Origin: Escherichia coli
Lineage (GTDB): Bacteria > Pseudomonadota > Gammaproteobacteria > Enterobacterales > Enterobacteriaceae
NCBI RefSeq assembly: GCF_003334305.1
Contig: NZ_QOWS01000022.1
Reading direction: 5' to 3' (one strand)
Length of the DNA: 64,000 nt
This document shows, piece after piece, positions 21,818 to 22,070 of this stretch. How positions within the stretch are numbered: the stretch's first letter is position 1; every line of letters starts with the position of its first letter. The notes under the pieces were generated by a model, which worked only from the letters and a program-made list of their open reading frames with translations, did no database searches and was not told the DNA's origin. The position numbers were made by a program, and so were the translations under genes.

Positions 21818-21967
21818 GTTCGTGTCTCCTGAAAAAAATCGTTCTGAATAAGTGTAAACGCGCGATTGTACCATTACCAATAGCGCTTTTACTATGTTGT
21901 GACCTCGGTTCCGGGAAACAAACCTGGCCAGACATTGTTACACAACACTCCGGGTAATGCATTCCAA

Positions 21968-21987
21968 TACTGTATATTCATTCAGGT
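21968..21987. promoter_or_regulatory. LexA (SOS) box in the ssb-uvrA divergent region
   Basis: tactgtatattcattcaggt contains CTG-N10-CAG with the TATAT core. Confidence 0.85.
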
Positions 21988-22070
21988 CAATTTGTGTCAT
22001 AATTAACCGTTTGTGATCGCCGGTAGCACCATGCCACCGGGCAAAAAAGCGTTTAATCCGGGAAAGGTGA

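Follow-up and report, generated by a model that had tools for sequence, protein, structure and literature searches.

The established LexA operator between the divergent ssb and uvrA genes of Escherichia coli and its unequal bearing on the two

The LexA/RecA circuit that governs the SOS response is well established, and the operator of gammaproteobacterial LexA is a 20-bp imperfect palindrome with an invariant CTG-N10-CAG, an AT-rich centre and the consensus TACTG(TA)5CAGTA. The site with which we deal here is the long-known single SOS box of the E. coli uvrA/ssb pair, described in 1982-85, and is not new. The box is reportedly treated by Brandsma et al. in 1983 (Nature 305:243) and 1985 (NAR 13:5095) and by Fernandez de Henestrosa et al. 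in 2000, the last with a heterology index (HI) of 6.98. Passages of PMC9505508 state that the single shared box 'controls both genes', giving the same HI, and that ssb has three promoters, of which LexA can repress only the distal one, the other two being constitutive. A literature table that accompanies AZT RNA-seq data lists the HI as 6.2. The shared operator also appears in Feliciello et al. 2022, and papers citing Brandsma 1983/1985 credit them with fusions and promoter mapping that point to a LexA-controlled ssb promoter. According to PMC3323433, the ssb-uvrA pair has a single LexA-binding site in common and the induction of ssb is moderate. In Salmonella enterica, ssb and uvrA are likewise divergent with one common box (HI 6.99), and both genes are up after nalidixic acid (passages of PMC8072944).

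The window, that is, the whole 64-kb stretch of DNA that we analysed, belongs to an E. coli chromosome. In a 30-kb alignment its positions 12943-42962 matched positions 4253000-4283000 of K-12 MG1655 in reverse orientation with 98.7% identity, window positions 21817-22071 corresponding to K-12 4273871-4274125. All 5426 complete E. coli genomes contain the segment 21700-22200 (501 bp), 5424 of 5427 records matching it with at least 99% identity, and uvrA and ssb are annotated beneath the match by RefSeq. The 253-bp spacer between the two divergent genes has exactly the limits that the first-pass annotation had given it, as follows from the positions of ssb and uvrA:

21281-21817, minus strand: ssb coding sequence, 178 aa, ATG at 21817, starting MASRGVNKV (open reading frame and K-12 annotation)
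21818-22070: ssb-uvrA spacer
21826-21830, minus strand: conserved ssb ribosome-binding site AGGAG
21968-21987, no strand: LexA operator (SOS box) TACTGTATATTCATTCAGGT, read directly, the sole box of the spacer
22071-24893, plus strand: uvrA coding sequence, 940 aa (open reading frame and RefSeq annotation beneath the match)
38854-38873 and 38875-38894, minus strand: tandem LexA boxes of lexA-dinF, upstream of lexA by K-12 alignment

A longer ssb of 199 aa, starting at a TTG at 21880 in the mechanical list of open reading frames, was rejected; the true start is the ATG at 21817, before which the AGGAG is conserved. As for other elements of the spacer, an ArcA binding site is also drawn there in Figure 1 of PMC9505508. 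An Rfam scan of 21200-22400 placed no family in the spacer, its sole match being a meaningless 16-bit snoRNA hit (E=0.84). At 22020-22042, in the presumed 5' leader of uvrA, an imperfect hairpin, CCGGTAGCA-CCA-TGCCACCGG, precedes an A-run. We rejected it as a feature, since the folding of 22010-22075 was no better than that of shuffles (z=0.16) and since it is not conserved among the aligned Enterobacterales spacers from the matches listed.

To score the box we used a symmetric log-odds weight matrix made from 17 published LexA boxes (PMC3009722 Table 4), the lexA box having been omitted from the original 18 because it lies inside the window scanned. The sequence at exactly 21968-21987 is tactgtatattcattcaggt; its CTG-N10-CAG, CTGTATATTCATTCAG, occupies 21970-21985, and the whole box has five mismatches to the perfect palindrome TACTG(TA)5CAGTA. 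In the 64-kb window it scored 16.7 bits, which falls within the span of the published sites under the same matrix, from 12.8 (polB) to 29.0 bits. The one clear SOS box that had been proposed for this spacer was therefore recovered at its exact coordinates. Across the window the lexA boxes at 38875-38894 and 38854-38873 scored 19.4 and 18.3 bits, and the fourth-best match, at 53611-53630, reached 9.9 bits. This agrees with the earlier expectation that a LexA matrix scan would return only three high scorers, the two lexA boxes and the one between ssb and uvrA. In 300 dinucleotide-preserving shuffles, 0.047 matches of at least 16.5 bits were expected per window vs three observed, and 14 of the 300 shuffled windows held any such match; at 9.9 bits or more the expectation rose to 0.87 per window. 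The three boxes are real outliers, all of them sitting in promoter regions of known SOS genes, and the fourth match is noise at chance level. By score alone, a single 16.7-bit site amounts to only about p=0.05 per window. What makes the uvrA-ssb box significant is its conservation, together with its place between two divergent genes in a promoter region of 253 bp. No second site within 21818-22070 appeared among the best 25 matrix matches of the window, the lowest of which had 3.6 bits.

Other ways of searching proved less useful. A search for TACTG(TA)5CAGTA with up to three mismatches returned nothing, not even the lexA boxes, because the uvrA-ssb box has five mismatches and the lexA boxes more than three; it was too strict and gave way to the weight matrix. 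The bare CTGT-N9-CAG pattern was dropped as too loose, with 12 matches against 5.8 expected. A heterology index computed by us from the 18 sites came to 9.2, not the published 6.98; the reference set differs, and the value was not used. The 9.9-bit match at 53611-53630, GTCTGAATGAATACCCAGTA, shares bases with the start codon (at 53617) of an open reading frame of 491 aa, which we take to be xylE from its size, position and first codons. Since 0.87 such matches are expected per window, it is probably meaningless.

The first-pass annotation had also remarked that ssb/uvrA, dnaB and lexA-dinF, all genes of DNA metabolism, lie within about 17 kb. Their proximity holds, over about 17-17.5 kb: the lexA boxes are about 17 kb from ssb, and lexA-dinF and dnaB were placed by alignment with K-12. 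For a functional meaning of this proximity we found no evidence. The genes in between (yjbR, yjbQ, aphA, tyrB, alr, qorA, pspG, dusA, yjbM, yjbL, zur and yjbJ) are unrelated to DNA metabolism, and functional clustering was considered and set aside.

The conservation of the box was studied across the Enterobacterales. Species-representative genomes were searched with a degenerate DNA pattern covering the initial 16 codons of uvrA, which gave at least 120 loci. Among the matches listed, 75 distinct spacers had ssb directly facing uvrA, from genera that include Escherichia, Salmonella, Citrobacter, Klebsiella, Enterobacter, Pantoea and Erwinia as well as Pectobacterium, Brenneria, Rahnella, Budvicia, Proteus and Tatumella. 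These 75 spacers, drawn from the matches listed, measure 214-562 bp (median 250), and exactly one box of at least 12 bits is present in 74 of them. CTG-N10-CAG is intact in all 74 boxed spacers among the matches listed, and no second site in the 75 exceeds 5.8 bits. When the same 75 spacers were aligned with MAFFT, conservation over the spacer peaked in the 20-mers that begin at 21966-21968, followed by the block TTTGTGTCATAAT at 21991-22003. To the ATG of uvrA the box keeps a median distance of 103 nt (interquartile range 100-107.5), upstream of the gene, and to that of ssb one of 146 nt (125-149.5), again among the matches listed. Our results confirmed that the box is real and strongly conserved. 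It has all the sequence-level features of a gammaproteobacterial LexA operator that can be tested, and the binding of LexA to it is taken from the literature, a gel shift or footprint having been reported historically for uvrA.

Several loci depart from the common arrangement. The only one of the 75 spacers among the matches listed without a box of at least 12 bits comes from an uncultured Enterobacteriaceae MAG (L099, CAKZHC010000003.1); it is 562 bp long, its best site, CCCTGTATACAGAATCAGTT, scores 6.8 bits, and its genes are about 75-79% identical to those of E. coli. Insertions on one or the other side of the box make for spacers of different length. The distance from the box to uvrA, otherwise about 100 nt, grows to 150-195 nt in Pectobacterium (L026, L093), in Rahnella and relatives (L044, L064, L110) and likewise in L067, L082, L088 and L105, and in Tatumella (L050, L087) the box is about 350 nt from ssb. 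Three further loci carry unexpected labels. The contig NZ_JAUFQN010000013.1 (L109), labelled Flavobacterium paronense CECT 8460, is 98% identical over its whole 9467 bp to window positions 19602-29094 and has an identical LexA box; judging from this likeness, E. coli DNA has almost certainly contaminated that assembly. A 'Hyphomicrobiales' MAG (L018) and a 'Proteobacteria' MAG (L036) have uvrA regions of the Enterobacterales type, with 78-81% identity.

Scanned with strict sigma-70 and terminator criteria, 21600-22300 gave no match, so our promoter assignments rest on relaxed matching and conservation:

21975-22003, plus strand: putative uvrA core promoter (relaxed hexamer scan with conservation overlay)
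21865-21873, minus strand: candidate proximal ssb promoter outside LexA control, with a weak -35 and the extended -10 TGgTACAAT (relaxed scan and conservation)
21961-22000, minus strand: putative region of the distal LexA-controlled ssb promoter, with two candidates proposed from the sequence
21971-22000, minus strand: distal ssb candidate 1, -35 ATGACA at 21995-22000, 18 bp, -10 TATACA at 21971-21976 inside the box
21961-21990, minus strand: distal ssb candidate 2, -35 TTGACC at 21985-21990, 18 bp, -10 TGGAAT at 21961-21966, with the box in the spacer

The box overlaps the conserved extended -10 promoter of uvrA. With the hexamers assigned here, the putative uvrA -35 (TATTCA, 21975-21980) lies inside the LexA box and is separated by a 17-bp spacer from the -10 of TGtCATAAT at 21995-22003, in which the TG is at 21995-21996 and CATAAT at 21998-22003. 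The -10 is about 98% and the -35 89% conserved in the aligned spacers among the matches listed, and in 60 of 74 of them the box is followed downstream by the extended -10 at no more than 25 nt. An overlap of the LexA box with the uvrA -35 is also described in passages of PMC9505508. On the other side, TGgTACAAT is located ~50 nt upstream of the ssb start codon, its hexamer being 84% conserved in the spacers among the matches listed, and it probably corresponds to one of the two ssb promoters published as independent of LexA. For the distal ssb promoter, the hexamers are predictions. Both candidates place the box over core elements, the ATGACA of candidate 1 also overlapping the uvrA -10 on the opposite strand; each matches only weakly, with little conservation outside the box. 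More generally, around the distal ssb promoter the spacers among the matches listed show poor conservation beyond the box and the uvrA -10.

We have very little doubt that 21968-21987 is the established LexA operator of the uvrA-ssb divergent promoter region of E. coli. In undamaged cells, a LexA dimer would sit on CTG-N10-CAG. The operator is expected to cover the uvrA -35 and a core part (the -10 or the spacer) of the most distal ssb promoter, which points the opposite way; because it would lie over both promoter cores, one bound dimer should block RNA polymerase at the uvrA and the distal ssb promoters alike. Upon DNA damage, RecA on single-stranded DNA would stimulate the self-cleavage of LexA, the operator would be vacated and both promoters would fire. 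Since the box is only a middling match to the consensus (HI about 7), basal expression would be appreciable. uvrA, presumably dependent on one promoter, would rise about 4-fold. Because ssb would be made mainly from its two LexA-independent proximal promoters, its SOS induction is expected to be small and to come only after strong induction. The LexA dependence of expression on which this scheme draws is taken from the literature.

How far ssb really responds to LexA is the live issue, and one already debated in print. The first-pass annotation had argued that one operator between two divergent DNA-repair genes implies shared LexA control. The literature agrees on a common operator (PMC9505508, PMC3323433), with control that is unequal: the repression of uvrA is direct, and among the three promoters of ssb only the distal one responds to LexA, for which reason the SOS induction of ssb is weak and inconsistently seen. 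Position alone does not imply symmetric control. In a published RNA-seq study with AZT, uvrA was induced 3.9-fold with a 4.4-fold lexA dependence, and ssb 1.5-fold with a lexA dependence ratio of 1.0, i.e., none. According to passages of PMC9505508, qPCR detected a lexA-dependent induction of ssb after UV and gamma irradiation, ssb was overexpressed in a constitutive-SOS mutant, and the wild type and lexA3 had equal ssb expression in normal growth. The literature holds decades of contradictory data, including three microarray studies and several radioimmunoassays with no ssb induction. Nothing argues against the box as the LexA operator of uvrA; in the case of ssb, the in vivo findings point in both directions.

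It is in principle conceivable, and in our judgement unlikely, that the box is functionally the operator of uvrA only, the adjacency of ssb being a by-product of gene order and LexA being physiologically irrelevant to ssb. The absent lexA dependence of ssb in the RNA-seq data and its equal expression in the wild type and lexA3 during growth are what this would predict, but the qPCR induction and the overexpression in the constitutive-SOS mutant oppose it, as does the LexA-controlled ssb promoter ascribed to Brandsma 1983/1985 by the papers that cite them. The spacing of the box can be read both ways: its distance to uvrA is tight, yet that to ssb is also fairly constrained among the matches listed. 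A nearly invariant uvrA -10 beside distal ssb elements that are not conserved outside the box favours a uvrA-only operator; in Salmonella, however, ssb rose 9.6-fold in the nalidixic acid data (passages of PMC8072944).

Gene order outside the Enterobacterales bears on the same question. In four Vibrio species with a long enough upstream region (L016, L045, L071, L116), uvrA and the divergent ssb are separated by galU and a qstR-like gene of 215 aa. There, scanning the 3.2 kb upstream of uvrA, we found a box of 23-26 bits ahead of uvrA, at a distance of 83-97 nt, and near ssb no site of more than 6 bits, so that the box has stayed with uvrA. This differs from the statement, in PMC3323433, that species in which the pair is split kept separate LexA sites for both genes, which would speak against an operator of uvrA only. 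In Zobellella (L077) and Oceanisphaera (L101), the gene facing uvrA encodes an MFS-type transporter and is followed by ssb, and the box is 61 nt before uvrA. The MFS-ssb layout also occurs in Glaciecola, Alteromonas, Shewanella and Idiomarina (L005, L046, L055, L080), where nothing above about 8 bits was found in the 3.2 kb upstream of uvrA. In all six of these loci the transporter has 430-457 aa and runs in the same direction as ssb. From these comparisons of Vibrio, of Zobellella and Oceanisphaera, and of the Alteromonadales, Shewanella and Idiomarina, the box tracks uvrA.

It is possible, and we put it forward tentatively, that the operator is evolutionarily that of uvrA: uvrA would ancestrally have been divergent from an MFS transporter-ssb operon, ssb and uvrA would have become adjacent in the Enterobacterales only after loss of the transporter, and the sharing would be secondary and largely dispensable, ssb being buffered by its conserved LexA-independent proximal promoters. 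The ancestral layout may still be seen in the Aeromonadales, with the box, and in the Alteromonadales, without it. If true, a uvrA-first origin would shift the emphasis without adding a new kind of system.

That the match is a chance palindrome-like sequence not bound by LexA has a negligible probability, for although AT-rich intergenic DNA favours such matches and 14 shuffled windows held one as strong, the retention of CTG-N10-CAG in all boxed spacers among the matches listed, with diverging flanks, four decades of the site in print and the lexA-dependent expression of uvrA in vivo, as the literature has it, effectively refute it.

The preferred reading, an operator shared unequally by uvrA and ssb, can be set against the systems nearest to it. 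The lexA operators of the same window (38854-38894) have the same motif class and repressor, with scores of 18-19 bits; they differ in being two tandem boxes before the unidirectional lexA-dinF operon, whereas uvrA-ssb has one box for two divergent promoters. In Vibrio and the Aeromonadales, too, uvrA is preceded by a box, 60-97 nt from its start codon (14-26 bits, among the matches listed); in Vibrio this box is not common to uvrA and ssb, because galU and the qstR-like gene separate them. The Salmonella box is TACTGTATATTCAAACAGGT, of 21.9 bits vs 16.7 in the E. coli window, and in S. enterica subsp. arizonae (L115) it lies 100 nt before uvrA. With the K-12 uvrA/ssb box, the locus, the gene order, the 253-bp spacer and the single box are all the same, and the 20-mer is the uvrA promoter box used in published constructs; apart from this being another E. 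coli strain, about 1% diverged in the region, nothing of substance differs. The value of the case is mainly that of a positive control, in which a reader without tools placed an established regulatory site at its exact coordinates. The site itself is a classic example of one repressor dimer acting on two back-to-back promoters; through it the SOS response takes in nucleotide excision repair, by way of uvrA, and, to a weak degree, the provision of single-strand DNA-binding protein.
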